DNA of 64,000 nt, from contig DAOPZL010000009.1 of assembly GCA_035353395.1 (NCBI GenBank), positions 5,687 to 69,686 on the forward strand, in the 5' to 3' direction. This DNA is from Holophaga sp. GTDB lineage: Bacteria > Acidobacteriota > Holophagae > Holophagales > Holophagaceae. Position numbers and translations under genes: made by a program. The notes beneath the pieces were generated by a model, which saw only the letters and a program-made list of their open reading frames with translations, was not told the DNA's origin and searched no databases. Below are positions 29,213 through 63,887 of this stretch, in pieces (the stretch's first letter is position 1; the number at the start of each line of letters is the position of its first letter).

Positions 29213-29770
29213 TCAGAGCAGCTCGGCGCCCTTGACGACCTTCGCGTAGGAGCCCGACAGGGCCGCCAGGAAGGACGCCTGGACGAGGTCCGGGGGGACG
29301 CGGGTCCCCTCGAAGTCCTGCGCGGGCGCCGCGCAGGCGTCGGACGCCACCGTGCACTCGAAGCCCAGGTCGAAGGCGGCCCGGGCCGTGGCGTCGACGC
29401 ACATGTGGGTCATCATGCCCGCCAGCACGAGCCGCTTCGCACCGAGCCCCTGCAGGATCCCGAGGAGGCCGGTCTCCCGGAACGAGTTCGGGAAGTGCTT
29501 GACCACGACGGCCTCACCCTCGGCCGGGCGGACGAGGGCATGGATCTCCGCCCCGGGCGTGTCCGGCAGGAAGAAGGTGGATCCGGGCCGCGTGGCGAGG
29601 TGCTGGACGTGCACGACGGGCTGTTTCCGGCGGCGGAAGGCCTTGAGCAGCCGGGCGGCGGTCTGCGCCGCCGGCGTGCTTCCGGGGACTTCGTAGCGGC
29701 CGCCCGGGAAGTAGTCGTTCTGGATATCGATGAGGACCAGGGCCTCGCGGTTGGCGTCCTGTTCAGGCAT
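29213..29770 (-). CDS. isochorismatase-family cysteine hydrolase (PncA-like)
   Basis: Track ORF 29213..29884 trimmed to ATG 29770 (MPEQDANREALVLIDIQNDYF). The catalytic Cys region is MMTHMCVDATARAA. Confidence 0.85.
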   Translation of the reverse strand: MPEQDANREALVLIDIQNDYFPGGRYEVPGSTPAAQTAARLLKAFRRRKQPVVHVQHLATRPGSTFFLPDTPGAEIHALVRPAEGEAVVVKHFPNSFRETGLLGILQGLGAKRLVLAGMMTHMCVDATARAAFDLGFECTVASDACAAPAQDFEGTRVPPDLVQASFLAALSGSYAKVVKGAELL

Positions 29771-29870: not shown

Positions 29871-29965
29871 AGAATATGATTCAATAATTCAAACCGAATG
29901 ATTTTATCAATCGTTGTTTATATAAATATTTATATAATAAATGTTAAAAAATATACACTAATTAC
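29871..29965 (+). promoter_or_regulatory. extremely AT-rich leader / probable promoter region upstream of vgrG
   Basis: Line 29881-29940 contains only 10 G+C in 60 nt by hand count, against about 40/60 in surrounding coding DNA. It contains many TATAAT-like hexamers. No specific -35/-10 pair can be assigned. Confidence 0.4.
29918..29937. repeat. perfect 20-bp palindrome TTATATAAATATTTATATAA
   Basis: Read directly; the reverse complement equals the forward sequence. It lies about 50 nt upstream of the vgrG start. Confidence 0.9.
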
Positions 29966-29986
29966 TTGATCATGAGGAATCTTGCC

Positions 29987-32671
29987 ATGCCCATCCTGGA
30001 ACCTGCTGCATGGGGCCGCGGTCTGGAGGAACGGTTCCGGTCCTTCCTCACCCAGGACACGCGGCTGGTGGAGCTGCACCCCTCCCTCGATGCCGGGTTC
30101 CCGGACGGCATGCTCCTGGCGCGCCGGGTCACGGGCTGGGAGGCCGTGAACGAGGGCTTCCGCTACGAAGTCGAGGTCCTGTCCCCGGACGCCTTCCTGG
30201 AGCTGAAGGCCCTCGAGGGCATGCCCGTCCAGGTCGCCCTCCTCACCGCCGGCGGCACCCGGCGGGAGATCAACGGCGTGGTCATGGAAGTCCGCAGCGA
30301 GGGTTCGGACGGCGCCCTCGCCGCCTACCGCCTGGTCGTCGAGCCCGTCACCGCCGCTCTGAAGCATGGCCGCACGTCGAGGGTCTACCTGGGACGGACC
30401 GATCTGGAGGTCGCGCGCCAGCTCCTGGACGAGGCCCTCCGGGACAATCCCGTCTTCGCCGCCTGCTTCGGCATCGACAACCGCTGCCGGGGCCGCTTCC
30501 CGGTCCGGGAGTTCATCTTCCAGTGCGGGGAGACCCCCTGGGACTTCATCCGCCGTCGTCTCGCCGGGATCGGCGTCTCCTTCGTCTTCGCCCCCGCGAA
30601 GGATGGTTCACCCGACTTCCCCCAGCACACCCTGGTCCTCTTCGACGACCCCCGGGACCTGGACGGGAACGAGGCGGGGACCGTGCGCTTCCACCGGGCC
30701 GACGGCACGGAGCGGGCCGATTCGATCACGCGGTGGCATGCCCGGCGGACGCTCCAGTGCAGCCGGGTGACGCGCCGGGCCTGGAACCACGCCCAGGGTT
30801 CCTGCAGCACGGCCGCGGAAGAGGTGGGGGCCGACCAAGGGCCGTTCGGGAATGCCCTGGCCAGCACGCTCGAGGACTACCGGCACGAGCCGCCCCTGGA
30901 GCAGGAGGGCCTGGAGGTCCCCGAGGCCCGCGCGGCTGCCGCTTCCCGGGGGAGGAGCCAGCGCACCAAGGCCTTCGAGGGGGAGGGCAGCGTGCGGGAG
31001 TTCCGGGCCGGGACCTGCTTCACCCTGAGTCAGCACCCCGTCCACGACCAGGATCCGCCGGAGAACCGGGAGTTCGTGCTCACGCGGGTGGAACTGGAGG
31101 CCGTGAACAACCTGCCGGAGGGACTGGCGCAGGCCCTCGGCCGCCGGGGGGAGGCGGGAGGCCAAGTCTACCGCAACCGCTTCGAGGGCCTCCGCCGGGG
31201 GATCCCCCTCCTCCCCGAGGAACTCCCCGCGCCCGTTCCGGGCCTCCAGACGGCGACGGTGGTGGGGCCCGGGCAGGAAGCCGTGCACACGGATGCCTGG
31301 GGCCGGATCAAGGTCCGGCTCCACTGCGCCCGTCCCGAGGACCACCCGGAGGCCGGAGCCACCGGCACGGACCGGGACAGCTTCTGGATCCGGGCCGTGC
31401 AGCCCTGGTCGAGCCAGGGCATGGGGGGCACCTTCCTTCCCCGGACGGGGGACGAAGTCCTGCTGGACTTCCTCGGGAACGATCCGGACAGGCCTGTGGT
31501 GGTGGGGGTCCTGCCGGGCGGCACGCGCCCGCCGGGGCGCTTCAGCGACGCGACCTGCCTGCCGGGAGACCGGGCGGTCTCGGGCCTGCGCTCCAGGGTG
31601 CACGGCGGCCTCGCCGGGAGCGAACTGCTGTTCGACGACACCCCAGGGGAGGTCCGGACTCGGCTGGCCAGCGACCATGCCCGCACGGAGCTGAACCTGG
31701 GCTTCAACGTCCATCCCCGGCGGAACGGGGTGGCCGAGCCGCGGGGGGAGGGCGCGGAGCTGAGGACCGACGCCGCCGTGGCCCTTCGGGGCGGACAAGG
31801 GGTGCTGATCAGCGCCGACGCCCGTCCGGGCGCGGGCGGCTCGCAACTCTCGCGCGAGGAGGCCCTGGGGCACCTGGAGGCGGGTCTGGAGCTGGCGAGG
31901 ACTGCCGGGGAACTGGGCGGCCGGCACGGCCTGGAGGGTCTGGAGGACAGCTCCCGGGCGGATCTCCTGGAGTGCGTCCGGGCCTGGGAGCAGGCTCCCG
32001 GATACCCGGGCGGCCGGAGCTCCATCCTGCTCGCCAGCGCCCCCGCCGGGATGGCGCTCGCCTCGGGGGACGGCGCAACGGTGCAGGCCGCGAGCAACCT
32101 GGACCTGGGGGCCATGCGGAACCTCCAGGCGAGTGCGGGCCGGCGGATGCTCTTCCACGCCCTGGAATCCATCGGGCTCTTCGCGCACCGCATGGGCATG
32201 AAGCTCGTCGCCGCCTCCGGCGACATCTCCATCCAGGCCCAGGACGGGAACGCGGAGGTGGTTGCCGCCAAGGCGCTGCGCCTGCTGTCCGTGGGGGGTC
32301 CCCTCGAACTGGACGCCGCGAAGGGAATCGTCCTGCGTTCCGGCGGCGCCTTCCTGGAAATCAAGGACGGAGGTATCCGGGCCGGGGGCACCGCCGGCTG
32401 GTTGGGCCAGTTCGCGAACGTCGCCTGGGCCGGCCCCGCCAACCGGGAAGCGAGGACGCGCTCGTTCACGAAGAGCACCGCGAGGATGGACGAGGCGTTC
32501 GTGCTCATCGATCCCCTGGGTGAGCCCGCCGGGAAGATGCGCTACCGGATCACCCGGGAGGACGGGAGCACGGTGGAGGGTGTGAGCGACGACCAGGGGC
32601 GGACGGAACTCTGCACGGGCGAACTCGCAGGCGCTCTGGAAATCCAGGTGTTCGGACCCGAGGAGGCATGA
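29987..32671 (+). CDS. vgrG: type VI secretion system spike protein VgrG with DUF2345-like region and TTR-like C-terminal tail
   Basis: Track ORF 29966..32671. ATG 29987 is preceded by AGGA at 8 nt; TTG 29966 and ATG 29972 are alternatives. It has a gp27-like N-domain and a gp5 OB-fold signature (AWGRIKVRLHCARPED..FWIRAVQPWSSQGMGGTFLPRTGDEVLLDFLGNDPDRPVVVGVL). Beta-helix repeats, a DUF2345-like segment (LFAHRMGMKLVAASGDISIQAQDGNAEVVAAK) and a 61-aa tail follow. Confidence 0.9.
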   Translation: MPILEPAAWGRGLEERFRSFLTQDTRLVELHPSLDAGFPDGMLLARRVTGWEAVNEGFRYEVEVLSPDAFLELKALEGMPVQVALLTAGGTRREINGVVMEVRSEGSDGALAAYRLVVEPVTAALKHGRTSRVYLGRTDLEVARQLLDEALRDNPVFAACFGIDNRCRGRFPVREFIFQCGETPWDFIRRRLAGIGVSFVFAPAKDGSPDFPQHTLVLFDDPRDLDGNEAGTVRFHRADGTERADSITRWHARRTLQCSRVTRRAWNHAQGSCSTAAEEVGADQGPFGNALASTLEDYRHEPPLEQEGLEVPEARAAAASRGRSQRTKAFEGEGSVREFRAGTCFTLSQHPVHDQDPPENREFVLTRVELEAVNNLPEGLAQALGRRGEAGGQVYRNRFEGLRRGIPLLPEELPAPVPGLQTATVVGPGQEAVHTDAWGRIKVRLHCARPEDHPEAGATGTDRDSFWIRAVQPWSSQGMGGTFLPRTGDEVLLDFLGNDPDRPVVVGVLPGGTRPPGRFSDATCLPGDRAVSGLRSRVHGGLAGSELLFDDTPGEVRTRLASDHARTELNLGFNVHPRRNGVAEPRGEGAELRTDAAVALRGGQGVLISADARPGAGGSQLSREEALGHLEAGLELARTAGELGGRHGLEGLEDSSRADLLECVRAWEQAPGYPGGRSSILLASAPAGMALASGDGATVQAASNLDLGAMRNLQASAGRRMLFHALESIGLFAHRMGMKLVAASGDISIQAQDGNAEVVAAKALRLLSVGGPLELDAAKGIVLRSGGAFLEIKDGGIRAGGTAGWLGQFANVAWAGPANREARTRSFTKSTARMDEAFVLIDPLGEPAGKMRYRITREDGSTVEGVSDDQGRTELCTGELAGALEIQVFGPEEA

Positions 32672-34530
32672 TGACCGTGGATCCGCTGCGTCCGGTGGAC
32701 CGCGAAGTGCAGAAGGACGGCACAGTGAAGGCCAGGTCCGCCCTGAGCCCCGAGTCCTTCAAGACGCGGGCGGAGGTCCTGGTGCCGTCGCGCAAGGTCA
32801 TCCCCGTCATCTTCGTGCCCGGGGTCATGGGATCGAACCTCAAGGTGAAGTCCGGGCGGGAAATCCCCGTGGGAACGGCCTACCGGAAGGCGGGCCAGGA
32901 CTACACCGCCAAGACCTGGACGCCGAACGAGGGCTTGTCCATGCTCACGCGGATGAGTTGCTACCCCCCCGCCCTTCGCCAGGTGATTCTCAACAAGGAC
33001 AATGTCGAGGTGGACGGCGAGGGGATGGTGGACGTGACCGGTCTCCCGCTGTCCGCCCAGGAAGCCAGGGCCAGGGGCTGGGGCGAGGTCATGTGGGAGG
33101 GCGCCTACGGGCAGCTCCTCCGGAGCCTGGAGTGTGATCTGTCGCGCTTCATGTATCCCCCCGGTCCTGGGGCGACCCAGCCGAAACTCAGCAGTTGGTG
33201 GAACGAGATGCATCATGCAGGCCAAGTGATCCCGGGAGATCCCTACGGGAATCGGACTCCCGTCAAGTCACGGATTCCAGCCAGTTTCCGGTTGACCCTG
33301 GAGGACATCAAGAAGGCGGGTGCCTTCCGTTTCCCGGTGCATGCCTGCGGCTACAACTGGCTGCAGTCCAACGCGGACTCGGCCAAGCGGCTCAAGGGGA
33401 AGATCGAGGCTGTCATCAGGAAGTACGCGGAAGCGAAGGGACCGGACGGCAAGCCCGCCTTCGAGTGCCGCCACGTCATCCTCGTGACCCACTCCATGGG
33501 GGGCTTCGTGGCCCGGATGGCCTCGAAGCTCCTGAAGAACGAGGGACATGAGGACAAGATCCTGGGCATCGTGCATGGGGAGATGCCCGCCCTGGGCGCG
33601 CCGGTCATGTACCGCCGCATGGCGTGCGGGTTCGAGTCCGACGGGAGCATCGGAGGTTTGGGTTTTGCCTGCATCGCGGGCTCGACCACTTCCAAAGCCA
33701 ATCCAGTCCTGGCCTTCAGCCCCGCCGCCCTTGAACTGGCCCCGACGCCGGACTACCCCGGCCCGTGGCTGCTTGCGGAGATTGCGGAAAATCAAACCAG
33801 CAGGCATGTGTTAGGACTACCTGCACATGGCGATCCCTATGGAGAGATTTTTTTGGCAAAGGGGAAATGGTATTGCCCAGTGGTTGAATGGATGTTAGAT
33901 CCAGCAAAATTGCACGTTAATAAATTTGGGAAGAATAGTTCTTGGGAAGATTACGTAAAAATCGTAACAGAAGCACAACTGTTTCATTGTGGTGCGAAAG
34001 CAGATTTTAAAAAACAAGATGAAAAGGAACGATTTCTTGGTAATTATTATCATCCCAAAACGTATATACATTATGGAGAAAATGAAAAAATTGATACATT
34101 AAATCATGTTCATTGGAGAGCGGAATTGCTTTATGAAAAACCATTCAATAATGGTGGAGCGAGTCGATTCTACCAATCTGCAAATCTAAAAAATACTAAC
34201 GGAAAAAATATTCGTGGAGTTGAACTGGATGTACTGGAAAGCTGGAGCCTCGGTCAGATAGAAGCGGAAAGGAAGGTGGCAAAAACAAATGGCCACCCTC
34301 TCGTCATCCCGAAAATTGTGCAGGAATTTCGATGTCACCACAAGAATCGCAAGGGGATCAGCAACAGGGGCGACGGAACGGTTCCAGATGTCAGTGGTGC
34401 ATTTCCCAGTCGACACGGAGTAAAGCAGATATACATACTTAGCGGCTTCGATCACCAGGGCGCCTATGAAAACGCAGTGGTCCGCGGGGCCACCTTCTTC
34501 GCCATCGTGGACATGGTGAAGCGGCTGTGA
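32668..34530 (+). CDS. putative T6SS lipase/phospholipase effector (alpha/beta hydrolase, Tle-like)
   Basis: Track ORF of 620 aa. Its start overlaps the vgrG stop (ATGA at 32668-32671). Oxyanion-type start of the fold: VIPVIFVPGVMGSNL. Nucleophile elbow: THSMGG (Ser codon 33493-33495). Candidate Asp in GDGTVPD (34372-34374) and candidate His in GFDHQG (34453-34455). The T6SS role is inferred from context. Confidence 0.65.
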   Translation: MMTVDPLRPVDREVQKDGTVKARSALSPESFKTRAEVLVPSRKVIPVIFVPGVMGSNLKVKSGREIPVGTAYRKAGQDYTAKTWTPNEGLSMLTRMSCYPPALRQVILNKDNVEVDGEGMVDVTGLPLSAQEARARGWGEVMWEGAYGQLLRSLECDLSRFMYPPGPGATQPKLSSWWNEMHHAGQVIPGDPYGNRTPVKSRIPASFRLTLEDIKKAGAFRFPVHACGYNWLQSNADSAKRLKGKIEAVIRKYAEAKGPDGKPAFECRHVILVTHSMGGFVARMASKLLKNEGHEDKILGIVHGEMPALGAPVMYRRMACGFESDGSIGGLGFACIAGSTTSKANPVLAFSPAALELAPTPDYPGPWLLAEIAENQTSRHVLGLPAHGDPYGEIFLAKGKWYCPVVEWMLDPAKLHVNKFGKNSSWEDYVKIVTEAQLFHCGAKADFKKQDEKERFLGNYYHPKTYIHYGENEKIDTLNHVHWRAELLYEKPFNNGGASRFYQSANLKNTNGKNIRGVELDVLESWSLGQIEAERKVAKTNGHPLVIPKIVQEFRCHHKNRKGISNRGDGTVPDVSGAFPSRHGVKQIYILSGFDHQGAYENAVVRGATFFAIVDMVKRL

Positions 34531-34540
34531 GGAGGACCTG

Positions 34541-35974
34541 ATGCGGACGCGGCCCCAGATCGCGAAAATCGTTGCCGTGACCCTGGCCTGCCTGATGGCC
34601 TTCGGCGCGTGGCGGCACCACGAGAGAAACCGGAAACGGGAGTTGCACATGCCCATGAAGACCTACGCCGCAGGGCGTTTCCAGTTGGATATCCCCGAAC
34701 CCTCCACCCTCGCGGGGTGGGGGCGCCAGGACATTCCTATCGGGTCGATAACTGTATTTCCTGAGATCTCCAAGCGAAAATTCCAGAAAATGATTGTTGA
34801 TGATCGCGTCGCCAGCCTGAAGAACGTCACGAGAAAATTCGGGAAACTTCTCAGTGAAACATCAACCGATATGGTCGATGTGGGTGAGGGAACCCTTCTG
34901 GAGAAGTACGTTCATGACCAGGTGCCAAATTCATCACATGTGTTGTTCTGGGGAGAGGATGGATTCAAAGGAGAAGGATGCAAACGTGAAACCTATTACT
35001 GGATTGAGACTCCAGGCAACTTCTCTCAAGAAGGTGTGGGTTATCGTTTCGAGGGTGGCATCTGGGTGGATGCAGGGAAACAACAAACCGCACTGAGAGA
35101 AATATCCGATTATCTCTCTCGCATTCGTCCAAGAAGGGATGACGAGGTTCCCCAGGAGCCTGGGTATTGTTTTCAACACGCATTCCTCGCGGGGGATGTA
35201 CCCTCCCCGTCAGACGAATGTTTCGAAGCCATCGCTGCCGAATGGCGCTTGGCGCATCACCCGGACGTGGTGATCAGCCTCTACACCCAGGGGGCGCCGA
35301 CCGTGAAGCCGGAAGGCCTCATCGCCCGGCACCGGGGGGCCATGCCGGAGGTCCTCGCCCGGTTCATCCGCGGAGTCCGGAGCCGGAAACGCACCCTCGG
35401 CGAATATGCCGGGGAGGAGATCGTCGTCAGGACCAAGGAAAAGAACGGCACATCCGGCTGCAACGCCATGTGGGAATTCGAAGGGGGCGACGAGAGGGAC
35501 CTGACTCGGCCCTACATCATGGTGCAGATGTTCTCCGGCAGCGGGGACAAGGAGCCCGTGGAGAGCAGTCTCTCGGAGGCGGAATTCCTGGCCATGTGGG
35601 ACGCGGTCCTGGAATCCTTCCGCTGGCGGGGCCCGAAGCCGGGGACGGGCTCTCCGGTTTCCGAGATGCCCCCGGCAGCAGCTCCCAGGCCCCGATCCGC
35701 CCTGGGAACCCGCATCCGTTCAGGCGAGCGATGTCCGGAGGCGGGCACCTGGACCTGTGCCCACGGGGAGAATCTCGGGGGCGCGAAACGCGTGTTCCGG
35801 GAAGGGGAGGAACTGCCCGCGGCGGTCCTGGATGTCCGGCGCGGCTGGTTCGGCACGCTGATGGGACGCCCCGCGGAAACCGTGGTGGACACCGTCTGGA
35901 CCCTCGCGGGCTATCCGGAAGGCACCCCGCTCTGCGATCAGAGCGCTATGGGGTCCCCAGCAGCCCCTTCGTGA
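34541..35974 (+). CDS. putative cognate immunity protein (Tli4-like), signal-anchored or secreted
   Basis: Track ORF of 477 aa starting 10 nt after the effector stop. It has an N-terminal hydrophobic segment (IAKIVAVTLACLMAFGAW). Motifs I associate with the Tli4 family: GRFQLDIP near the N-terminus, PGYCF in the middle, and LAMWDAVLESFRWR near the end of the core. An extra ~100-aa Cys-containing tail follows. Confidence 0.6.
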   Translation: MRTRPQIAKIVAVTLACLMAFGAWRHHERNRKRELHMPMKTYAAGRFQLDIPEPSTLAGWGRQDIPIGSITVFPEISKRKFQKMIVDDRVASLKNVTRKFGKLLSETSTDMVDVGEGTLLEKYVHDQVPNSSHVLFWGEDGFKGEGCKRETYYWIETPGNFSQEGVGYRFEGGIWVDAGKQQTALREISDYLSRIRPRRDDEVPQEPGYCFQHAFLAGDVPSPSDECFEAIAAEWRLAHHPDVVISLYTQGAPTVKPEGLIARHRGAMPEVLARFIRGVRSRKRTLGEYAGEEIVVRTKEKNGTSGCNAMWEFEGGDERDLTRPYIMVQMFSGSGDKEPVESSLSEAEFLAMWDAVLESFRWRGPKPGTGSPVSEMPPAAAPRPRSALGTRIRSGERCPEAGTWTCAHGENLGGAKRVFREGEELPAAVLDVRRGWFGTLMGRPAETVVDTVWTLAGYPEGTPLCDQSAMGSPAAPS

Positions 35975-37079
35975 GGTGGGAGATGGCTCTCTGGGCCACC
36001 TCGGAATAGCGGCTCTCGCCTGAGAGGAGGCGCGCCATGTGCTGGACCGCGCCGGGACGCTGGACGCCCAGGCGGTAGGCCGCCGCGGGCACGCGGAAGA
36101 AGATCCGGGCCAGGCGACGGGCCCAGATCATTTCCGTTCCCAGGCGTTCGTGGATCCGCCGGGTGTAGTCCTCGAGGGAAGGATCCTTCCGGGAGAGCGC
36201 GGCATGCACGCTCTCGGCGGCGATCCGCCCCGAGAGCACCGAGGGGCGGATGCCTTCGGCCGTGAAAGGGTCCACCAGGCAGGCGGTCTCGCCCGCCAGG
36301 AGCGCCTGCTGGGTATGGAGCGTCTGGTCTCCGTCCCAGAGCTTGATGGGGTGGCCTGCCGGACGCATGTGGTCGGGATCGAGCTGCAAGCCCCGGCAGT
36401 AGGCCCCGAAGGATGCCCGGAGGTTTCCACCCCCCTTCCCGCGGAAGACGCCGCAGCCCACGGACCAGCCGTCGGCCTTGGGGAAGGCCCACTGGTAGCC
36501 GTTCGGGACGGAACCGAAATCCACGTGCGCCGTGCGGACATCGGTCATCGGGCAGAGGGCCTCGCCCTCCAGGGCGACCGCCAGGGTATGTTTCAGCCGG
36601 GAGAACCCGAGGGCCTTCGCGGTCCTCCCGAGGGCCCCGTCCGCGCCGATGAGGAAGCGGCCCGCCGCGGGGCCCGAGGGCGTATCCACGGTCCAGTGGC
36701 CGGACTCCCAGCGGCAGGCCGTCGCTTCCGTGGCATCGCGCAGCTCGGCGCCCTGGGACACCGCCTGGTCCACGAGCAGCTGGTCGAACACCTCCCGGCG
36801 GACCATCCAGAGGGTCGTCGTGGGTCCGAGGTCCGCCTCGACGGGGGTTGCCATCTCCCAGGTGAGGCGGAGGCGTGAAATCGAGGTGGAGACGGCGGGC
36901 GCGAGATCGAAGGGGAGCCACCGCGCGACCTCGGGCGAGACGCCGCCTCCGCAGGGTTTCATGCGGGGGAGCTTGGCCTTCTCCAGCAGCAGGACCTTCC
37001 TTCCCATGTGGGCCAGGTGGTAGGCGGCGGTGGCGCCTGCAGGGCCCGCGCCGATCACGATGCTGTCGTAGCTGTCCAT
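35946..37079 (-). CDS. geranylgeranyl-reductase-family FAD-dependent oxidoreductase
   Basis: Track ORF of 377 aa. Dinucleotide-binding N-terminus: YDSIVIGAGPAGATAAYHLAHMGRKVLLLEK, then KPCGGGVS. Confidence 0.85.
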   Translation of the reverse strand: MDSYDSIVIGAGPAGATAAYHLAHMGRKVLLLEKAKLPRMKPCGGGVSPEVARWLPFDLAPAVSTSISRLRLTWEMATPVEADLGPTTTLWMVRREVFDQLLVDQAVSQGAELRDATEATACRWESGHWTVDTPSGPAAGRFLIGADGALGRTAKALGFSRLKHTLAVALEGEALCPMTDVRTAHVDFGSVPNGYQWAFPKADGWSVGCGVFRGKGGGNLRASFGAYCRGLQLDPDHMRPAGHPIKLWDGDQTLHTQQALLAGETACLVDPFTAEGIRPSVLSGRIAAESVHAALSRKDPSLEDYTRRIHERLGTEMIWARRLARIFFRVPAAAYRLGVQRPGAVQHMARLLSGESRYSEVAQRAISHLTKGLLGTP

Positions 37080-44953: not shown

Positions 44954-45244
44954 CTACTTCGCGGAAGCTTCCGCGGCCGCCGCCGCCTTCTGGCGCTTCT
45001 CTTCGATGTCCTTCCAGCGCACGCCGTAGATCGCGAAGTCGGGGCAGTAGAGTCCGCAGAGATCGCATCCCGTGCAGTCCTCGGGACGGGCGAGCGTCGG
45101 GTAGTGGTAGCCCTTCGCGTTGAAATCCCTGGAGAAATCCAGGGAGTGTGTCGGGCAGAAGGTGATGCAGTAGGAACATCCCTTGCACACCTCGGCCCTT
45201 ACGAAGACAGTGCCCTTGCCTTTCTTTGGTTCGTTGCCGGTCAT
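44954..45244 (-). CDS. korD: 4Fe-4S dicluster ferredoxin-type delta subunit of the oxidoreductase
   Basis: Track ORF of 96 aa with two cluster motifs, CKGCSYCITFCP and CTGCDLCGLYCP. Confidence 0.85.
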   Translation of the reverse strand: MTGNEPKKGKGTVFVRAEVCKGCSYCITFCPTHSLDFSRDFNAKGYHYPTLARPEDCTGCDLCGLYCPDFAIYGVRWKDIEEKRQKAAAAAEASAK

Positions 45245-45334
45245 ATAGTTTGGCCCCCTCGCCGATGCGGAAAATCCTACACCCGACCTGAAAGGTCAAC
45301 AAGCTCGAAAAGGGAAAAAGTTTTTCGAAATATC

Positions 45335-45348
45335 GATGTAATTACATC
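45335..45348. promoter_or_regulatory. perfect 14-bp palindrome GATGTAATTACATC upstream of the kor operon (candidate operator)
   Basis: Read directly. It sits in the AT-richer 156-nt spacer between the sdaAA stop (45401) and the korD start (45244), about 90 nt upstream of korD. The regulatory role is inferred only. Confidence 0.35.
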
Positions 45349-45400
45349 ATTTAATTGAGTTACACGACAGAATCGATAAGAAGAAATTTGTTCACGAAAC

Positions 45401-46330
45401 TTACGCATGCTTGTTTTGTTGACAATATGCAAAAGATATTCCCGGTTCCGTTTCCGCCTCGAGGCCCGGACTTGCAGCTTTCACGGGCAGGAGAGCCAAG
45501 CCCCCGCGGGCCGTTTCGCGAAACTCTTCCGGTAACCGCCTCCCCACCTTTCCCATGGTCTCGATGACTTCGTCCGCAGAAAAAAGGCTTTCACAGCCGG
45601 CGAGGGCCATTTCCGCTGACAGGACCGCATTGCTCGCGCCCAGCGCGTTGCGCTTCACGCAGGGGACCTCCACGAGGCCCCGCACCGGATCGCAGATCAG
45701 GCCCAGGATGTTGCCGAGGGCGAAGGCCACGGCGCTTCCGGCCTGGGCCGGCGATCCTCCCATCATCTCGACCAGCGCGCCGGCGGCCATGGCCGAGGCC
45801 GAGCCGACCTCCGCCTGGCAGCCGCCTTCCGCCCCGCTGAGCGACGCGGAACGCTCGATGACGAGGCCGATGCCTCCGGCGGTGAAGAAGGCCTCCACGA
45901 GCCGCTCTTCCGCGATCCCGCGCGCCTCGGCCACCGTGAAGAGGGCGGCCGGAAGGACGCCGCAGGAGCCGGCCGTGGGGGCCGCGACGATCCGGCCCAT
46001 GCATGCGTTGACCTCCGCGACGGCCATGGCCGCAGCCACCAGGCGCGAGAAGTCCGCCCCGAGCAGGGAGCCGCCCCCCGCGGCCCAGTCCGTGATCCGG
46101 TGGGCCTCGCCGGAGATCAGCCCGCTGCGGGAACGCTGGGGGGATTCGAGTCCCCGGGCGAGGGCCTGGCGCATGACCCCGATGCGCGCGCGCATGAGGT
46201 CCCGAAGCTCCGTCTCCGGCTTCCCGGACTCGCGCGCCTCGTCCCGCAGGAAGACGCCGGAGAGCGGTCCTCCCGCCTCCTCGGCCACGGCGATGGTGCG
46301 CCCCAGGGAGCCTTCCTTCCCCTTCTGCAT
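45401..46330 (-). CDS. sdaAA: L-serine ammonia-lyase (Fe-S dependent), alpha subunit
   Basis: Track ORF of 309 aa. The SDH_alpha pattern is present: VAEVNACMGRIVAAPTAGSCGVLPAAL..GGCQAEVGSASAMAA. Confidence 0.9.
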   Translation of the reverse strand: MQKGKEGSLGRTIAVAEEAGGPLSGVFLRDEARESGKPETELRDLMRARIGVMRQALARGLESPQRSRSGLISGEAHRITDWAAGGGSLLGADFSRLVAAAMAVAEVNACMGRIVAAPTAGSCGVLPAALFTVAEARGIAEERLVEAFFTAGGIGLVIERSASLSGAEGGCQAEVGSASAMAAGALVEMMGGSPAQAGSAVAFALGNILGLICDPVRGLVEVPCVKRNALGASNAVLSAEMALAGCESLFSADEVIETMGKVGRRLPEEFRETARGGLALLPVKAASPGLEAETEPGISFAYCQQNKHA

Positions 46331-55879: not shown

Positions 55880-55987
55880 GGCTAGATTGTGCCACCTTTG
55901 GCCGGGCCCGCTTTCGGATCGGCGGGAGGCGGCTGGGCCGCTCTGTTAACATCCAGCAACCCGGAGGTTCCAGTGCGGCAGGGATCG

Positions 55988-58168
55988 ATGTGGAAGGGGC
56001 TCGCATGGATGCTGTGCGTCCTGGCCGGGCAGGGCCTCCTCGCCCAGGGTGCCCTGGGATCCCAGGCGGCCCGGCGCTGGGCCTGGGACCAGGCGAAGAC
56101 CTGGCGCTGCTCGAAACGGGATGCCCAGGGGAAGCTGCTGTGGGAAGACAAGCCCCTGCTGTCGCTGCCCTACGGGGAGCAGAACGAGCAGCTCCTCGGC
56201 CGGCTGAAGGGAGAGGCCAGGGAACGGCGGGCGGCCCTGGTCGTGCTCGGGGACCGACCCCTGGACCACTGGGCCAGGGCCGCGCTCCTGGCGTCCGGGA
56301 ATCGCGACGAGGTCGCCCACTTCCTCCATTTCAAGGGCTACCGGCTGCCGGGCAAGGACCCCTTCGCCTACCTGGAGCCTTCCTCCCTCGTGGCCAGGCC
56401 CTGGACCCAGGGCCTGGGGCTCCATCTCGAGGGACCCGGCGCCTGGCGCTTCCAGTGGATCCCAGAGCCCGTCCTGCTGCCCAGCACGGACGCGGCCGGG
56501 GTGCTGCCCCGGGCCCTGGAGCAGGCGGCACAGCCCAGCGCCATCCTGCACCTGCGCCAGTTCCGGGGCGGGCTGGCCCGGCTCCGGGCCCTGGCGGGCG
56601 GCCCCGGCGGCATGGTCCAGGCCCTGGCCCGCGGGAGCCGGGCGGGATTCTTCGCGAGCCACCTGGAGCCCTGGCTGGAGCGTTCCTCGGTGGCCCTCGC
56701 GCCCCTCGCGGACCGCGAAGTCTGGGTGCTCCACTACGGCCTCGAGCGCGGCGGCCCGGGGCCCTCGGGAGGCACCCTGGTCTTCCTCCCGGGGACCCTG
56801 CCGGCGAGCACCCGGATGTTCCTCGAACTGCTGAGGCTGAATCCGACTTCGAGGGGGGCCCGCGCCAGGGTCGTCACCTGGACGGGAGCCTATGGGGGCC
56901 AGGCCAGGGTGATCCAGGTCCGGGGGGCCGGGGGAGTCCTGAACGTCTGCGCGACGAAAGACGGGACCTGGATCTGCGACCGCGAGGCGCCCCTGCGGTC
57001 GGCCCTCTTCCCGGCGGCGGACGTGACCCTCGGCGAGCGACTGGAGTGGTGCAAGGTGGCGCTGGCGGGGATGCGGCCGCGGACGGAAATCTCCCTCTGG
57101 CTGCTGCCGCGCCTGGGCGCGGGCGCGGCCTTCGAACGCACCGCCCTCCGGCGGAGGCTGCTGGGCGGCCGCCAGAAGACCTGGAACAACCCCTGCATCG
57201 CCAAGGCGGCGCCCCGGAGCGGGACGCTGTCCGTGGCCCTGGGAGCGGGCCCCACGGAACCGCTCGTCGCGTCCCTGCTCCGGAAGGACCAGGAGGCTCC
57301 CATCGAGGACCCGGAACTGCCGAAGATCGCGGACGGCGGCGGCAACCTGACGCCCGAGCAGCAGGAAGCCTACCTGTCGGAACTGCAGGCCGCGAGATCG
57401 CGCCGGGAGGCCCGCAAGGTCCTGCGGCAGGAGGCGGACGCCCTGCTCGCGACCCTCGATCTCCGGGGCGCGGCCTTCTACTGGAAGGGCTGGGTGGCCG
57501 CGCCGCCGCTCTCGATCCAGGAACAGGCGGCCCAGGCGGAGTTCAGGAAACTGCAGACGGAGAGCCGCTACCAGGCCCGTCGAAGGCAGCGCGAAGGGAA
57601 GGCCGGCTTCTACGGCGGATTCGGCGAACCGGGGATGACGCCCAGCGTGGCCCTGGCCCTGCCCGTGCGTCCGGAGGGACGCGGCGCCCTGGAGGCGGCC
57701 CTCCGGCGGCTCTGGTCCCATCTCTTCAAGGGACGGCTCGAGAGCCGCGAGTACGCCAAGGGGGTCCAGCTCCACCGGATCCGTACCGCCCAGGCCTTCA
57801 CGCCCTGCTACGCCCTGGTGGGCGACACGCTGGTGGCCGGCAGCGACGACGCGGCCGTCCAGTCCATCGCGGGAGGACTCCTGGGCCAGGCCCCCACGAT
57901 CGCGGACCTCCAGGGAAGGTCCTTCGGGACGGCCCATCTCGATGGGGTCTCCGCGGCCGGGGATCTCGAGACCCTTCTCCTCGCCTACCTGAGGACCACC
58001 CAAGGGGGCGGCGCCTGGTGGTTCGGGGAGCCCTCGCCCTCGGACGACGATGCCTCGGCGGAAGTGGCCTCCACCTTCGGGCCCTTCCTCGGAGCCATGA
58101 AGGCCCTGGGCACCAGGACGCTCCAGGTGGAATGGACCCCCGCCGGCCTGGAGGCCTGGCCGCGATGA
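55988..58168 (+). CDS. hypothetical secreted protein, first gene of the alpha-2-macroglobulin operon (possibly YfaA/DUF2138-like)
   Basis: Track ORF 55889..58168 trimmed to ATG 55988 ([21 protein letters not shown], a signal peptide). The family guess rests on operon position relative to the DUF1175 and A2M genes, not on motifs. Confidence 0.6.
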
Positions 58169-59136
58169 GACGCGCGGCGCTCTGGCCGGGAGGAGGCGCC
58201 CTCCTCCTCGCGGGGGCGGCGGCCCTCGTGCCCGTGCGCCACCGGGGCCGGATCGAGTGTTCGGAAGGGAACCCCGTCCAGCGGATCGTGCTGGAGAGCC
58301 GGAGCCTGCTGGGCCTGCGGCGGACCGCCTGGCGGGCCCGGGTGGAGGGAGCGGAGGCCTGGGGAGACGCGGGGACGGGCTTCTACCTGTCTCCGGAGCG
58401 GCCGACGGCGGTCGTCCTGGCTGCCTGGCCGGGCTTCCGCGAGAGATTCCTGCTCTCGCCCGTCGAGACGGATCCTTCCGGCGACCTGCTCGGCCAGGGG
58501 GACCAGGACGCCTTCCGGACCTGGTTCGTGGCCCTGCTGGAGCAGCAGCTCGAGGGAGCGAGCCCCGCCTGGGAACCCGCCCAGCGGGACTGCGCCGGAC
58601 TCCTGCGCTTCGCCTTCCGGGAGGCCTGGGGTCCCCATACGGAGGCCTGGCGGGCGAGGACGGGGTTCCCGCCCTCGCCTGTGGCGGGGGATCCCAGCCC
58701 CGCCATGGGAGGCCCCTGGCGCGCCGCCTTCCCCACCCCCGCCGGCTGGCAGCCCTTCGCCAAGGGCGCGTTCCTGCGCGGCCACGCCTGCGTGCCCCTG
58801 GGACGGGACCTGGCCGAGGCCGAGCCCGGGGACCTGCTCTTCTTCGCCAGGGGTGGGGCCCATCCCGAGCCCGACCACGCCATGGCCTTCGTGCGGCCGG
58901 ACGTCGACGGACAGCCGATGCTGGTCTACCACACGGGGCCCGAGGGATCCGGGCGGACCCGGAAGGATGGGGAAGTCCGACGCGTGCGCCTGGACGACCT
59001 CCTCCACCATCCGTCCCCGGACTTCAGGCCCCTGCCGGAGAATCCCGCCTTCCTCGGGCTCTACCGATGGAAAGTCCTCTGCAGCGGACTCGAACGCGCA
59101 GCCCTTCCCGACCCTTCCGCCCCGAGTCGACCATGA
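58165..59136 (+). CDS. DUF1175 (YfaT/MagB-like) protein
   Basis: This is the C-terminal part of track ORF 55990..59136. ATG 58165 overlaps the preceding stop (ATGA). It has an N-terminal hydrophobic segment ([17 protein letters not shown]). The motif [16 protein letters not shown] and the later GDLLFF..HAMAF fit my recollection of DUF1175. Confidence 0.7.
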
Positions 59137-62100
59137 ACCGGTTCCGTTTCCTCCTCTCCCTGCTGATCCCGGCGCTCCTGCTGCTGCCCAGCGCCGGCTC
59201 CTCGGCGCCGAAGGCCGCCGAAGCGGCCTGGCGCGAAGGGGGCTGGGTGGGCGCCTTCGCGATGCCGCGCCCCACGCTGCCCGGGCGGACCGCCTGGCTC
59301 GAGGCCGCAGGCCCCGTCCCGAGCCAGGTGCGGGTGCGCCTCTACCGCGTCGAGGACGCCGAAGGCCTCCTGAAGCAGCTCCTGGCCGCGAAGGAGGGCG
59401 AGGCCTTCCTGGCAGGCGGCCGGGGAGGGCGGGACCCCCTCGACACGCTGAGGGAGGCCTTCCTGTGGGGCGGCCGGCGGGCCTTCGTGACCGTCCACCG
59501 CACCGCCACCCAGGCGCTGCGCGACCTCGCCCGGCAGACCGAGCGCCTGGGGCCGCCCAGGCTCGGGTCGACGCCTCCCCGCGACGGGGATGCCCTCGTC
59601 CTGGAGGGCCAGCCCGGCCTCGCCTTCATGACCGAGCTGGTGCCGAAGGTGACGGAGGAGATCACGGCGGCGAAGGAAGGGGAGGGAGACGAACCGGGCC
59701 ACCTCAGCCGCGTGGAGCTTCCCGCCCAGCGCGCCGGGATCTACCTGCTGGAGATCCTGAAGGGGAGCGAAGCGGCCTACGTCCCCTGGCTCGTGACGGA
59801 CCTGGCCCTGCTGGCCGAGCAGGACGGCACGCGGCTGAGGGTCCAGGCTCTCAACGCCCTGGACGGTTCCCTCCGGCCGGGCGTCACCGGCCGCATCGTC
59901 GAAGGGGGCGCGGCCCGGCCCCTGGCCTTCGGCTCGGACGGCCGGGCGGAGATCCAGGCCGGTCCCGGGGTCCGCCGCGTGGTCGTGGCCCGGTCCGGGG
60001 ACAACTGCGCGCTGCTGGCCATCGAAGGGCAGGGGACCGCCGCGGTGAAGCAGCGCCTCTACGCCTTCACGGAACGCCCCCTCTACCGCCCTGGGCAGGA
60101 GGTGCACCTCAAGGCCATCCTCCGCACCGTCGAGAACGGCGAAAACCGTGTGCCGAACGGCATCGCCGAGCTCCCCTACACGGTCCTGGACCCCGAGGAC
60201 ACCCGCGTGGCCGAAGGCCGGGCGAAGCTCCTCGACGCGGCCACCGGCACCTTCGGGGCCGCGGTCCGGCTGCCCGGCGCCGGGAGGCTGGGCCTTTTCC
60301 GGGTGGTCTTCCAGGGGCCCCAGGGGCCGGGACAGGCCGAATTCAAGGTGGAGCACTTCGTGAAGCCGAGCTTCTCCGTCGCCGTGGCCGCGGGGAAAAC
60401 CAAGGCCGGGCTCGGGGACGGCGTGTCCTTCTCGATCAAGGCCGACTATTTCTACGGCGCGGCGGTGCGCGGCGCCAGGGCCGACTGGTTCCTCTACAAG
60501 GTGGCCAGGAGCGGCTACGGCTGGTACTGGGGCGGCGGGGAGGAGGAACCCGCGCCGGAACTCATGGAGAGCGGCCAGCTCGAGCTGGACGAGGACGGCG
60601 CGGCCAGGACCGGCGAGTTCAAGATGACGGAGGAAGGCCTCTGGCGGCTGGTGGTGAAGGTCGCCGACGGCAGCGGCCAGCGGAACTCGGGCGCCGCGCA
60701 GGTGAGGGTCGCCCGGGGCGACCGGGTGGTCCTGGTCGATGCCGACCGCAGCGTCGCCGCCCCCGGGAAGCCGTTCGCGGTGGTGGCCAGGGTCCAGGAT
60801 CTGGACGGGAACGAGGTGAAGGGCGTGCCCATCGTGCTGAAGGCGACCCGCATCCTCGCCGAAAAGAAGGACGGCGCCTGGTGGACGAGGCCCACGGCCC
60901 TCAAGCCCGGCGAAGTGCTCGCGAGCGCGCCCGGGCCCAGGGCCCAGCTCGCGATCCCGGAAGGCGGGCTGTTCCTCGTCCTGGCCGAAGCCAAGGATGG
61001 CCAGGGACGCCCGATCTCCGCCCAGCGCCTCGTCACCGTGGCGGCCGAGGGCACCCCGCTGCCTGCCGTGCGGGACCTCCGCGCCGGGGCCGACAAGCGG
61101 GAATACAGGCCCGGCGAGACCGCCCGGATCCTGGTGCGGCTCCCGCGGCCCCGGCTGACCCTCCACTGGTCGCTGGAGCACGAGACCCTGGGGACCCGGC
61201 AGGCGCGGGTCGTCCAGGGGACGACCACCGTGGTGGAGATTCCCGTCACGGAGGACATGCGCCCCAATGCCTGGGCCGTCTTCGAGATCGTGGCGGAAGG
61301 CCGGCGCCAGCTCGCCGAAGTGCCCATCCGGGTGCCTCGCATCGACCGCCGCCTCCAGGTGGACGTGGCCATGGACCAGGCCCACTACCAGCCGGGCCAG
61401 ACCATGAAGCTGGCCGTGGGCGTGAAGGACGCCGACGGTCGGCCCGTGGCCGCCGATCTCAGCGTGGGCGTGGTGGACGAAGCCATCTACGCGCTCTCCG
61501 GGGAACTCCATCCCGATCCCGTCCGCTTCTTCCATCCGTCCCGCCGCCACGGCGTCCTCCGCAGCGGCAGCACGGAATGGAGCTTCTGCGACCTGCTGCG
61601 CCGGCAGCGGCCGGTCTGGAGCCTGAAACGGACCCGGCGGGGCGAGTTCAAGAGCGAGGACCACGACAAGGTCCGCGACAACTTCAAGGACACGGCCCTG
61701 TGGGTGCCGTTCCTGGCCACCGGCAGGGACGGGAAGGCCTCCGCCGAGGTCGTGCTGCCGGACAACCTCACCGCCTGGAGGGCCACCGCCACCGCGGTCA
61801 CGGGCGACACGAGGCTGGGGGTCGGCCGGGCTTCGGGGCCCGTCTCCAAGCCCCTGCAGGTGAGCCTCACCCTTCCGCGGACGCTGTCCCTGGGCGAGGA
61901 GGCGCGGGTCATCGCCCAGGTGCGGAACCTTTCCGGAACGCTCATCCCGGGCAAGGTCCGCCTCGAGGTGGCCAACGGGAGCCTGGCCGGGGACGCGGAG
62001 GGCGCCTTCTCCCTGGCGGACAAGGGCGAGTTCAGGTTCGCCGTGCCGCTGCTTCCCTCCGGGACGGGACAGCTCACGGTGACGGCCCGCGCGGAGGGAG

Positions 62101-63887
62101 GCGGCCTGAAGGATGCGGAACGGCGCAGCGTCACGGTGCTGGACCAGATGGTCCCCGCCTCCGTGAGCGGCCATCTCCTCCTCCAGGGCGGCTCCCGGAT
62201 CCAGGAGATCCCCGTGCCGCCCCACGCGGCGGGAGAGGCCTCCCTCGTGCTGACGCCCGTGGGCACCCTGGAGCACCTGGTCGCCCCATCCCTGCCCTAC
62301 CTGGTCTCCTATCCCTACGGATGCGTCGAGCAGACCCTCTCCAGCTTCGTCCCCAACATCCTCCTGGCGGATCTCGTGAAGCAGGGGCTGATGCCGCCGA
62401 TCGACTGGAAGCAGCTGGTCGACCTGGACCGCAACATCCGCGACGGGGTCTTCCGGGTCTACGGCTACCAGCAGGGCGACGGGGGCTGGGGCTGGTATGC
62501 GCCCCACGACTTCGGCCAGGCGGCCAACCCGCACACGACCGGCTACGCCATCCAGAGCCTCGCCCTGATGAAGCGCCTGGGCTACGAGGTGGACGAAGGC
62601 GTCTACCGGCGCGGACGCCAGGCCGCCATCGCCCTCTTCCAGGAAACCGCCCGCCAGGCCGACGCGCGAACCCCCGGAACCGCTCCCGGGAAGGGGGAGG
62701 CGCCCGATCCGTGCGCGGACGCGGCCTTCCTGCTGCAGGCCCTCGCCCAGACGGGCGAACCCCTCGCGGGCGTGCTGGACAGCACCGCGGACAAGGTCCT
62801 CCAGGGCAAGTGGCCCGGGGCCCACGTCCTGGCCATGACCGCCTTCGCGGCGGCCTGGACCCGGCACCCGAAGGCCCAGGCCCTGGCCGCCGGGCTGGAG
62901 CGGGCGGCGGTGGTGAAGGGCGGGCTCGCCCGCTGGGAAGGGAACCGGGACGACTGGTTCGGCTACAGCTCCGGGGACGTGGTGCCGACCGCCATGGCCC
63001 TGAAGGCCCTGGCCCTGGCCAGCCCCCGGTCCCCGCTGATCCCCCAGGCCGAGGCCTTCCTCGCCTCGGAGTTCCAGGGCTGCGGCTGGTATTCGACCTG
63101 GTCCACGGCCCAGGTGGTGGAGGTCCTGCCCTGCCTGGCAAAGGTCCGGAAGCTGGAGTGGGATGCGCCCGCGCTCAAGGTCTCCATCGCGGGAGGTCCT
63201 TCCTGGGACTTCTCCCGGCAGGGGGACCGGGCCCTCCACCGCTGGGGGAGTCGAGACCCCCGCCCCGGCTTCTTCCCCATGGACGCGCCGAAGCCGCTGA
63301 AGCTCACGGCGTCGGGCCGGGGCGTGCTGGTCTGGACCTATGCCTACCAGGTGCCGGGCAGCGCGGCGGGGGCCGTGAAGGCGGAGAGTTCCTCCGCCAT
63401 GCGGATGGAGGTGGTCCGTTCCCTGTGGAAGCTGCGGACGCCCCGGCAGACCGGAGAGCCCAGGAAAGGCTGGATCCGCGAAAAGTGGACCGGCGGGCTC
63501 CAGGTGGGCGACGAAGCCTGGATGGAACTGCGGGCGAAGGTCGACCGCCCCGCGGACTACGCGATCCTCGAAGTGCCCCTCCCGGCGGGACTCAGTCCCA
63601 CGGTGGCCCTGGAGGGATTCGTGCTGGAGGGCCAGCCCCTCGCGGAGGGGAGCGATCCGGACGAGTGGAGCCGGCAACCGCGCATCGAGGTCCATCCCGA
63701 CAAGGTGGTCTGCTTCTTCCGGCGGCTCGAGCCCTGGGACGCGCCCCGGGTCCGGATCCTCCTGAGGGCGGGCCTGGCGGGCCGCTACCGGCTCCGCCCC
63801 GCCAGGCTGAGCCTCATGTCCAACGAGAGCCAGTGGACCACCTGCGATGGCCTGGACCTGCGCGTGACGGAAGGAGGCCGGCCATGA
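59133..63887 (+). CDS. bacterial alpha-2-macroglobulin family protein (1584 aa) with CVEQ thioester motif
   Basis: In the frame of track ORF 58257..63887. ATG 59133 overlaps the preceding stop (ATGA). The signal peptide is [23 protein letters not shown], with no lipobox Cys. It has repeated macroglobulin-type beta-sandwich segments. Thioester-domain motifs: [13 protein letters not shown] (Cys-Val-Glu-Gln at 62322-62333) and GDGGWGWY. Confidence 0.9.

Follow-up and report, generated by a model that had tools for sequence, protein, structure and literature searches.

A predicted orphan type VI secretion cassette (vgrG-tle4-tli4) in Holophaga sp. with a compositionally mosaic toxin-antidote gene pair

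The DNA analysed here (hereafter the window) is a stretch of 64,000 nt from contig DAOPZL010000009.1 of Holophaga sp. (assembly GCA_035353395.1), with a mean G+C content of 68%. Three co-directional open reading frames (ORFs) fill positions 29987–35974 of its + strand, between housekeeping genes on the opposite strand. They are predicted to encode a spike protein of a type VI secretion system (T6SS), a phospholipase effector and the matching immunity protein; all features of the cassette given below lie on the + strand. The spike gene vgrG (TssI; 29987–32671, 894 aa) starts at ATG 29987, with a GAGGA motif 8 nt ahead of it and TTG 29966 as a possible alternative start. The tle4-family effector gene (tle; 32668–34530, 620 aa) overlaps the vgrG stop by the sequence ATGA at 32668–32671, and the tli4-family immunity gene (tli; 34541–35974, 477 aa) begins 10 nt beyond the tle stop. 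The overlap, the short gap and the GAGGAGG Shine-Dalgarno-like motifs ahead of the tle and tli starts together bear the signature of a translationally coupled operon. A first-pass annotation of this DNA, made from the letters alone, had described the same layout, and direct reading of the sequence agrees with it in coordinates, overlap and gap.

The first gene had been proposed to be a vgrG, and profile hidden Markov model searches identify it as such. Its product carries the gp27-like domain (Phage_GPD, PF05954; aa 52–375, nt 30140–31111, E 4e-61), the gp5 OB fold (Phage_base_V, PF04717; aa 459–509, nt 31361–31513, E 2.5e-10), T6SS_Vgr (PF13296; aa 541–640, nt 31607–31906, E 4e-29) and DUF2345 (PF10106; aa 675–818, nt 32009–32440, E 6e-35). 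It also exceeds the cut-offs of the VgrG family models TIGR03361 (254 bits against 186) and TIGR01646 (221 bits against 122). Judged by these domains, ORF 1 is a full-length T6SS spike. Its G+C content at third codon positions (GC3) is about 0.9 along the whole gene, which corresponds to the codon usage of the host. Beyond DUF2345 the protein continues for another 76 aa (aa 819–894, nt 32441–32668), and this C-terminal tail is a candidate cargo-binding element.

The second product, earlier described as an alpha/beta-hydrolase acting as cargo effector, can be placed in the Tle4 family. By sequence it matches a single solved structure, chain A of PDB entry 4R1D, which holds the Tle4–Tli4 complex (4R1D_A; phmmer E 1.3e-43, query residues 34–485 against chain residues 38–447). 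An AlphaFold2 (AF2) model computed with 37 homologues (predicted local distance difference test (pLDDT) 87.9; predicted template modelling score (pTM) 0.89) has the same chain as its top Foldseek match (E 4e-32; template modelling (TM) score 0.62 on the query and 0.74 on the target). LPLA2/LCAT phospholipases follow as the next fold matches, at E 1e-7 to 1e-5, and weak Pfam matches to LCAT and PGAP1 surround the nucleophile elbow. The putative catalytic triad consists of the nucleophile Ser276 (nt 33493–33495, motif THSMGG), Asp569 (nt 34372–34374, motif GDGTVP) and His596 (nt 34453–34455, motif FDHQ). All three residues are invariant across the 37-sequence alignment, Asp and His having been assigned by alignment of motifs and not from coordinates. 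In the model the N-terminus is disordered and not hydrophobic, and no export signal is detectable in it. Sequence and model thus agree in placing ORF 2 among the Tle4/TplE-family phospholipase effectors; by analogy with that family, it may be expected to act as a phospholipase, to be toxic in the periplasm and to be exported by a T6SS. A strain variant of the effector (P0001) is 98% identical, and 10 of the 11 differences lie within aa 49–98 (window positions 32812–32961), a segment that aligns with the 'L peptide' of TplE, the binder of Tli4 domain II. The immunity protein encoded on a contig of equal length and presumed to be the cognate of this variant (P0137) differs from the one described here at 5 sites (aa 266–381).

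The third gene had been taken for the immunity gene on the basis of its position. Its product scores 107 bits with Tli4_C (PF18426), against a cut-off of 25, and matches PDB chains 4R1D_B and 5H7Y_A at E 8e-18, which identifies ORF 3, as far as homology can tell, as a Tli4-family immunity protein. An N-terminal hydrophobic segment (aa 7–24, nt 34559–34612; hydropathy maximum 2.1 at aa 7–23) is followed by domain I (aa ~40–200, nt 34658–35140), domain II or Tli4_C (aa 202–363, nt 35144–35629, E 1.5e-30) and a C-terminal extension (aa ~370–465, nt 35648–35935). Tli4_N (PF18443) remains below threshold (18.9 bits against a cut-off of 26.5, E 0.0018) at aa 40–127, in the hypervariable part of low G+C content. 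The hydrophobic segment would anchor Tli in the envelope, with the remainder of the protein oriented towards the periplasm. Searches for a Pfam or PDB relative of the C-terminal extension returned none, and homologues of it are found at 46 of 80 metagenomic Tle4 loci. This module of about 95 aa contains cysteines (CPEAGTWTC...WTLAGY). Since it is 68% identical to its counterpart in the Tli of another locus of the Holophaga lineage (L018), the domains I and II of which reach only ~30%, it appears to shuffle separately from the rest of the protein.

Comparison of spike proteins points to the part of VgrG that may select the cargo. Over its N-terminal 560 residues, the window VgrG shares 51–78% identity with every VgrG of the Holophaga lineage, whatever its cargo. 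Identity over the DUF2345 region is 61–68% in VgrGs with Tle4-type cargo, as opposed to 26–29% in those with other cargo. The 76-aa tail is 41–51% identical in three VgrGs known to precede Tle4-type cargo and is absent, or at most 39% identical over a partial match, in four with known other cargo; identities of 42–53% also occur in a few VgrGs whose cargo is not known. A homologue of the VgrG C-terminus is present at 62 of the 80 metagenomic Tle4 loci. Because DUF2345 and tail co-vary with the cargo and the N-terminal core does not, these data support direct, adaptor-free loading of Tle on the C-terminal third of VgrG (DUF2345 plus tail). A precedent is given in a passage of PMC6099711, according to which Tle1 of enteroaggregative Escherichia coli (EAEC) is loaded directly through the C-terminus of VgrG1. 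We also considered a transthyretin-like domain for the tail and dropped this assignment, the Pfam hints being sub-threshold and the pLDDT of the AF2 model being 61. The closest relative of the window VgrG (77% in the core) is encoded at L018 (10001–12668), where the gene is split into ORFs of 685 aa and of 192 aa, the latter with DUF2345; the split may reflect a pseudogene or a frameshift error of long reads. The lipase carried there is only 33% identical to the window Tle, and spike core and cargo are therefore uncoupled. A scan of a genome collection that lacks this species gave, with the window VgrG as query, as best match a segment of 57% identity in a Holophagaceae metagenome-assembled genome (MAG).

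The toxin and antidote genes are compositionally mosaic, a feature that is absent from the first-pass annotation. Two intragenic patches of low G+C content stand out. Patch 1 is an inferred recombinant segment in tle (~33780–34450, aa ~370–595), delimited by GC3, G+C content, amino-acid composition and sequence identity. Patch 2 is an inferred second recombinant segment in tli (~34720–35230, aa ~61–230, essentially domain I), delimited by GC3 and G+C content. In 300-nt windows, G+C content drops below 40% in patch 1 and nowhere else in the window (minimum 0.31, z about -8.3 against the rest of the window). In its deepest part (33950–34210) GC3 falls to 0.0–0.2, and a short G+C-rich spike lies over the conserved GDGTVP motif. 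In patch 2, GC3 is 0.3–0.6 between flanks of 0.8–1.0 (z about -5.2). Host codon usage is found in the first ~365 codons of tle, across the gene junction (the last ~25 tle codons and the first ~60 tli codons), and in tli from codon ~231 onwards.

Patch 1 takes in the larger part of Tle from the nucleophile Ser to the catalytic His, with putative cap insertions and two core strands. The residues F, Y, M, I, N and K make up 0.34 of its translation and G, A, R and P 0.19, compared to 0.19–0.26 and 0.27–0.32 in the homologous segment of relatives. As the amino-acid composition is shifted too, the segment would appear to have resided for long in a low-G+C genome, rather than to have drifted locally. 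The closest relative that includes both sides of the patch (P0003) is 92% identical at aa ~90–380, 44% at aa 395–560 and 73% over the last 60 aa. Relatives on other high-G+C contigs, L010 and L017 among them, have uniformly high GC3 in both genes, and at L018 there is a small GC3 dip at the same position of tle. The edges of the patches coincide with motifs that the whole clade has conserved, which is what homologous recombination would lead one to expect. Most likely, the patch segments were replaced by homologous recombination with one or more divergent alleles from a donor of much lower G+C content, in which case the conserved motifs would have served as crossover points.

A scan of metagenomes with Tle aa 301–620 gave nothing that could be confirmed as donor. 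With the clade alignment as query, all matches were distant members of the family (30–40% identity, 51–69% G+C), and no donor-like allele was among them. The range of 51–69% G+C holds for all 80 metagenomic family loci. Within the family the patches correspond to the most variable parts: the Tle patch is detectable at 41 of the 80 loci (at 35% identity or less) and the N-terminal part of Tle at all 80; for Tli the figures are 3 of 80 for domain I and 65 of 80 for domain II. In 1.84 billion representative proteins, the domain I patch has 28 matches at E ≤ 1e-3, the best of them at 61% identity.

The cassette is bordered on the left by an isochorismatase-family hydrolase gene (29213–29770, - strand; PF00857, E 1e-41) and on the right by a geranylgeranyl-reductase-family flavoprotein gene (35946–37079, - strand; TIGR02032, 223 bits). 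Both lie outside the system; the latter gene is convergent with tli, their 3' ends overlapping by 29 nt. The gene content of the window was surveyed from precomputed Pfam annotation of the called genes on identical metagenome contigs (~6.8–63 kb) and, for the rest, from direct scans of the ORFs at the left end and of ORFs that carried no annotation. None of the genes surveyed in the 64 kb belongs to the T6SS core or to an Hcp, PAAR or adaptor family, and for this stretch the description as orphan is correct. The surroundings are made up of housekeeping, regulatory and envelope genes only, for example PPDK, DnaX, chorismate synthase, histidine kinases, threonine synthase, 2-oxoacid:ferredoxin oxidoreductase and a Ser/Thr kinase. 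With ~30 kb of housekeeping genes on either side, vgrG lies away from core genes and is an auxiliary or orphan vgrG. The annotation shows no integrase, transposase or insertion sequence (IS) element at the borders, tRNA genes lying outside that scan, and no convincing att-like flanking direct repeats were found there. A deviant composition, as expected of a horizontally acquired genomic island, is seen only in the upstream tract described below and in the two patches, vgrG being host-like. The first-pass annotation had thus rightly noted housekeeping neighbours on the opposite strand and borders free of integrase and IS. Its proposed comparison with an empty site yielded none: in all 17 contigs with the exact isochorismatase-family protein, vgrG adjoins that gene or the contig breaks inside the island.

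At NCBI, proteins identical to those of the window are filed under 'Holophaga sp.' MAGs, where the spike is named 'type VI secretion system Vgr family protein', the immunity protein 'T6SS immunity protein Tli4 family protein' and the effector 'hypothetical'. The first-pass annotation had called the pair effectively uncharacterised, should the lineage be one in which T6SS cargo is barely studied; at the level of the family this does not hold. The lineage is understudied for T6SS cargo, and in the literature searched no study of such cargo in Holophaga was found. The Tle4/Tli4 family, on the other hand, has been studied in structure and function, and two of the three genes, those for spike and immunity protein, already bear names at NCBI. 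Contigs from at least 8 samples, which we take to be anaerobic-digester metagenomes, carry the locus; six alignable contigs from five samples are 99.8–99.98% identical over their aligned length. Many independent assemblies (L028–L032) break inside vgrG or tle, and in MAG GCA_964427065.1 the locus is split over separate contigs (L003, L031). Such breaks fit repeated vgrG paralogues or strain heterogeneity at the locus.

Several vgrG paralogues each are present in Holophaga foetida and in a 3.67-Mb uncultured Holophaga genome. Eight further vgrG loci of the lineage were inspected, and seven of them (L010, L017, L018, L020, L021, L022 and L033) are small orphan cargo cassettes among unrelated housekeeping genes. 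A scattering of orphan cassettes thus appears to be how these genes are usually arranged, and vgrG-effector-immunity cassettes of this kind, singled out by the first-pass annotation, are the norm in the Holophaga lineage and well known elsewhere. The order vgrG-tle4-tli4 recurs at L010 and L018, the L017 contig ending just past tle. It is also shared by most of the 80 metagenomic Tle4 loci (VgrG C-terminus at 62, Tli domain II at 65), and adjacent VgrG and Tle4 matches were found in replicons of Burkholderia and Ralstonia; the Ralstonia plasmid region examined is another orphan vgrG island. At L010 (11884–14790, on a 540-kb contig) the Tle4 gene is followed by two tandem Tli4-family genes (458 and 457 aa), which suggests duplication or accumulation of immunity genes. 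Genes of sigma-54 activators (PAS, Sigma54_activat, HTH_8) lie directly upstream of two orphan vgrG cassettes (L022, 7881–9821; L033, 7907–9895; uncultured Holophaga sp., 3.67-Mb contig). They recall the VasH-type control of Vibrio auxiliary clusters, and none stands beside the window cassette.

The eighth locus (L115; H. foetida KI912268.1, 2470990–2493965) has TssJ (T6SS-SciN) and TssK (T6SS_VasE) at the edge of the part inspected. The gene order is vgrG, a 1058-aa effector of the phospholipase D (PLD) type, a 436-aa Tli4_C protein, PAAR, Tla3, TssJ and TssK. Since this vgrG locus abuts TssJ and TssK, the genus has T6SS machinery. The locus represents the edge of a T6SS core cluster, and the Tli4_C fold is apparently used there beside a different class of lipase. 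In a published study, an AnnoTree search found T6SS genes in 14 genomes of Acidobacteria, all of them Holophagae, alongside the UBA6911 family of that study.

Based on this dataset, we consider the cassette to be an auxiliary, orphan T6SS cargo unit of the vgrG-tle4-tli4 type, belonging to an uncultured Holophaga species known from MAGs, in which the toxin/antidote allele is a recombinant mosaic, and we assign this interpretation a probability of roughly 85%. A trimer of VgrG would cap the Hcp tube of a T6SS whose genes lie in another part of the genome. The lipase would ride on the cargo-specific C-terminal third of VgrG, with its DUF2345 region and 76-aa tail, and no separate adaptor would be involved. 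Fired into the periplasm of neighbouring Gram-negative cells, it would hydrolyse membrane phospholipids there by means of the Ser276-Asp569-His596 triad. The envelope-anchored Tli4 homologue would protect the producer and its kin, presumably by clamping the cap domain over the active site of the lipase, as in the Tle4–Tli4 complex of Pseudomonas aeruginosa.

In P. aeruginosa, Tle4/TplE and Tli4/TplEi (PDB 4R1D, 5H7Y) constitute an envelope phospholipase and an immunity protein that grips its cap (PMC5611513, PMC6099711). The window effector is homologous to this enzyme (E 1e-43; TM 0.74 on the target) and shares with it the THSMGG nucleophile motif and the Asp and His motifs. Domain II (Tli4_C) of the immunity protein is likewise homologous, and the effector gene precedes the immunity gene in both systems. 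The P. aeruginosa genes for Tle4, which is delivered by the H2-T6SS, and for Tli4 are PA1510 and PA1509, with a vgrG adjacent. Identity between the two pairs is only ~25–30%. The window Tle is ~50 residues longer, with the extra material between nucleophile and Asp, and domain I of the window Tli is barely recognisable against Tli4 (Tli4_N, E 0.0018). The window Tli further differs by its extra C-terminal module of ~95 aa and by a hydrophobic anchor that looks uncleaved, and the pair as a whole by its anaerobic acidobacterial host and its mosaic composition. The LPLA2/LCAT enzymes (PDB 4X90, 5TXF) share the alpha/beta-hydrolase fold at 11–13% identity, but are eukaryotic enzymes of lipid metabolism and have no T6SS context. 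In gene order the cassette resembles the VgrG1-Tle1-Tli1 set of EAEC (cited in PMC6099711), where vgrG, lipase gene and immunity gene likewise stand in succession and there is no separate adaptor gene. A C-terminal extension of VgrG is implicated in the choice of cargo in both cases, here by co-variation. In contrast to EAEC, the lipase belongs to the Tle4 and not the Tle1 family, and the genes lie outside a core cluster.

Several observations weigh against this interpretation. The hydrophobic segment of Tli precedes a strongly basic stretch (RHHERNRKRE), and no obvious lipobox or cleavage site is present. The first position of the GxSxG motif of Tle is a Thr (THSMG), a variant that also occurs in the sequence of the solved Tle4. 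For the VgrG tail, the Pfam hints at a beta-sandwich are sub-threshold and the AF2 model, all-beta, has low confidence (pLDDT 61). The searches yielded no donor of the patches (patch 1 finds its best match outside at ~45%), and patch 2 is recognised by codon composition alone, its amino-acid shift being weak. Finally, no T6SS core gene lies in the 64-kb window of this genome, T6SS genes being found at the level of the genus only, and there is no Hcp or PAAR gene near the cassette.

The mosaic itself may be explained in two ways, for which the architecture of the Tle4 cap is relevant. This cap is formed by three segments inserted in the hydrolase core (10.1101/2023.03.28.534661). Passages of PMC5611513 that cite Lu et al. 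(2014) describe a small cap subdomain, including residues 82–108, that binds Tli4 domain II, and a large cap subdomain that binds Tli4 domain I. In the AF2 model, patch 1 comprises two core strands as well as helices and hairpins that do not belong to the canonical order of strands, and the patch plausibly corresponds to the large cap subdomain. Patch 2 is essentially domain I of Tli. It is quite possible, if short of probable, that the patches are real but unrelated recombination tracts, left by two or more independent events where the two genes are least constrained, and that no coupled change of specificity took place. They differ in depth (GC3 ~0.15 and ~0.45), and ~270 nt with host-like composition lie between them; patch 1 shows a strong amino-acid shift and patch 2 a weak one, and across the family these very regions simply vary the most. 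On the other hand, if the large cap contacts domain I as that passage of PMC5611513 states, an alteration of one partner would bring selection for an alteration of the other, and an effector with a swapped immunity-contact surface and an unmatched immunity protein would be self-toxic. We therefore also put forward, as a tentative and on balance unlikely proposal, that both patches are the two faces of a single interface between the large cap subdomain of the lipase and Tli domain I, imported from a distant low-G+C lineage into a gene pair that is adapted to the host in its other parts; the unequal depth of the patches and the host-like sequence between them call for caution here.

An improbable alternative to an active cargo unit is that the cassette is a relic, in a genome that has lost or never had a working T6SS, and that the lipase is not delivered or is used otherwise. 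The 64 kb without core, Hcp or PAAR gene would be in keeping with this, as would the seven of eight other lineage vgrG loci that are likewise far from core genes. Yet all three ORFs are intact and translationally coupled, the catalytic residues are conserved, vgrG has host codon usage, and contigs of several samples agree in the locus at 99.8% identity or more. In addition, the congeneric H. foetida has TssJ and TssK beside another vgrG cassette, and multiple cassettes per genome are typical of active T6SS users.

That tle and tli encode an ordinary exported lipase or esterase with a downstream chaperone or foldase, standing beside vgrG by accident, appears very unlikely. The idea draws on the 'hypothetical' label of the effector at NCBI, on the many homologues automatically named 'esterase/lipase' or 'pimeloyl-ACP methyl ester carboxylesterase', and on a preprint reporting that Tli can be required for activation of Tle (10.1101/2023.03.28.534661). 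It is at odds with the lack of a detectable export signal in the Tle model, with the overlap of the tle start and the vgrG stop, with the recurrence of the vgrG-tle4-tli4 order in most of 80 independent loci, and with the closest solved structure, which is a T6SS effector-immunity complex.

Least probable of all is that the patches are an artefact of a chimeric metagenome contig: although the DNA comes from metagenomes and the contigs of several assemblies end within vgrG or tle, the island with both patches is at least 99.9% identical in five contigs from four samples (JGI 3300010352 and 3300009694; ENA ERZ27257423 and ERZ27257449; NCBI GCA_035403565.1), a sixth (L028, JGI 3300009692) is 99.8% identical but ends in tle ahead of the patches, the reading frames are uninterrupted, and the protein segments encoded there show homology to the family along their whole length, so that this near-identical reproduction across samples excludes a chimeric assembly.

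The auxiliary clusters of Vibrio cholerae offer a parallel for a recombining cargo unit. As there, spike, effector and immunity genes are found in sets away from the main cluster (PMC3988814, PMC5361080), and the effector-immunity part is more diverse and of lower G+C content than its flanks and is exchanged by recombination. The effector modules of V. cholerae have a G+C content ~9% lower than the conserved flanks (PMC3988814) and undergo sequential displacement via homologous recombination (PMC5361080). V. cholerae swaps whole effector-immunity pairs or C-terminal domains with a drop of ~9 points, whereas the drop in the window reaches ~35 points and is sub-genic. Unlike in V. cholerae, a host-like composition is kept in the N-terminal 60% of the effector, at the junction of the two genes and in domain II of the immunity protein, and neither hcp nor an adaptor gene belongs to the cassette. 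Established examples exist of auxiliary vgrG-effector-immunity cassettes, of Tle4/Tli4 pairs and of effector modules that recombine and are low in G+C content. What distinguishes the present locus is the extreme sub-genic compositional break, the conserved extra C-terminal module of Tli and the scattering of cassettes across the lineage.

Direct reading of the sequence upstream of vgrG reveals an AT-rich intergenic tract (29875–29986, +), presumed to be a promoter or regulatory region. The first-pass annotation had pointed to an AT-rich left edge, and the tract bears this out: positions 29891–29976 have at most 20% G+C in 40-nt windows, one of just three such sites in the 64 kb. Similar tracts precede all nine vgrG genes of the Holophaga lineage examined. 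A scan for sigma-70 promoters and terminators gave no signal above shuffled expectation and nothing in the tract, and a search for the sigma-54 pattern upstream of vgrG gave a poor match only. The heptamer AAATATT occurs 9 times in 236 kb, 8 of these within 200 nt upstream of a vgrG (at 5 of 9 loci). The loci with AAATATT in an AT-rich upstream 200 nt are the window, L010, L021, L022 and L033. We do not claim AAATATT as a true motif, since the enrichment may merely reflect AT-richness; the tract with its heptamers could be a shared regulatory element or plain AT-richness.

Two other parts of the window deserve mention. Positions 45133–45464 are the sole other stretch below 45% G+C in 300-nt windows. 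The stretch spans the gap between an ORF ending at 45302 (oxidoreductase/ferredoxin gene), part of which it takes in, and the serine dehydratase alpha gene starting at 45401, and presumably represents a promoter region. An operon at ~55889–63887 encodes a protein of 731–759 aa that has no Pfam match, a MagC-family protein and a large bacterial alpha-2-macroglobulin (MG2, A2M, bMG10). It is a system of the envelope-defence type and unrelated to the cassette.

Taken together, the cassette adds a new data point, in that Tle4/Tli4-type T6SS cargo extends into anaerobic Acidobacteriota (Holophaga). The mosaic is the more useful lead, as the sub-genic break is unusually sharp (GC3 from 0.9 to ~0.1 and back) and coincides with the most variable parts of toxin and antidote. 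Alleles of the P0003 type and of the window type are natural chimeras for testing specificity segments. If the interface between cap and domain I was indeed exchanged as proposed, a sub-genic swap across lineages would re-key the specificity of toxin and antidote, while the catalytic core, the VgrG-docking part and the interface of small cap and domain II stay unchanged. Tle4/Tli4 pairs would then diversify via matched specificity cassettes and not via whole genes, and the scattered cassettes of Holophaga would be a natural system for studying the exchange of such specificity cassettes.

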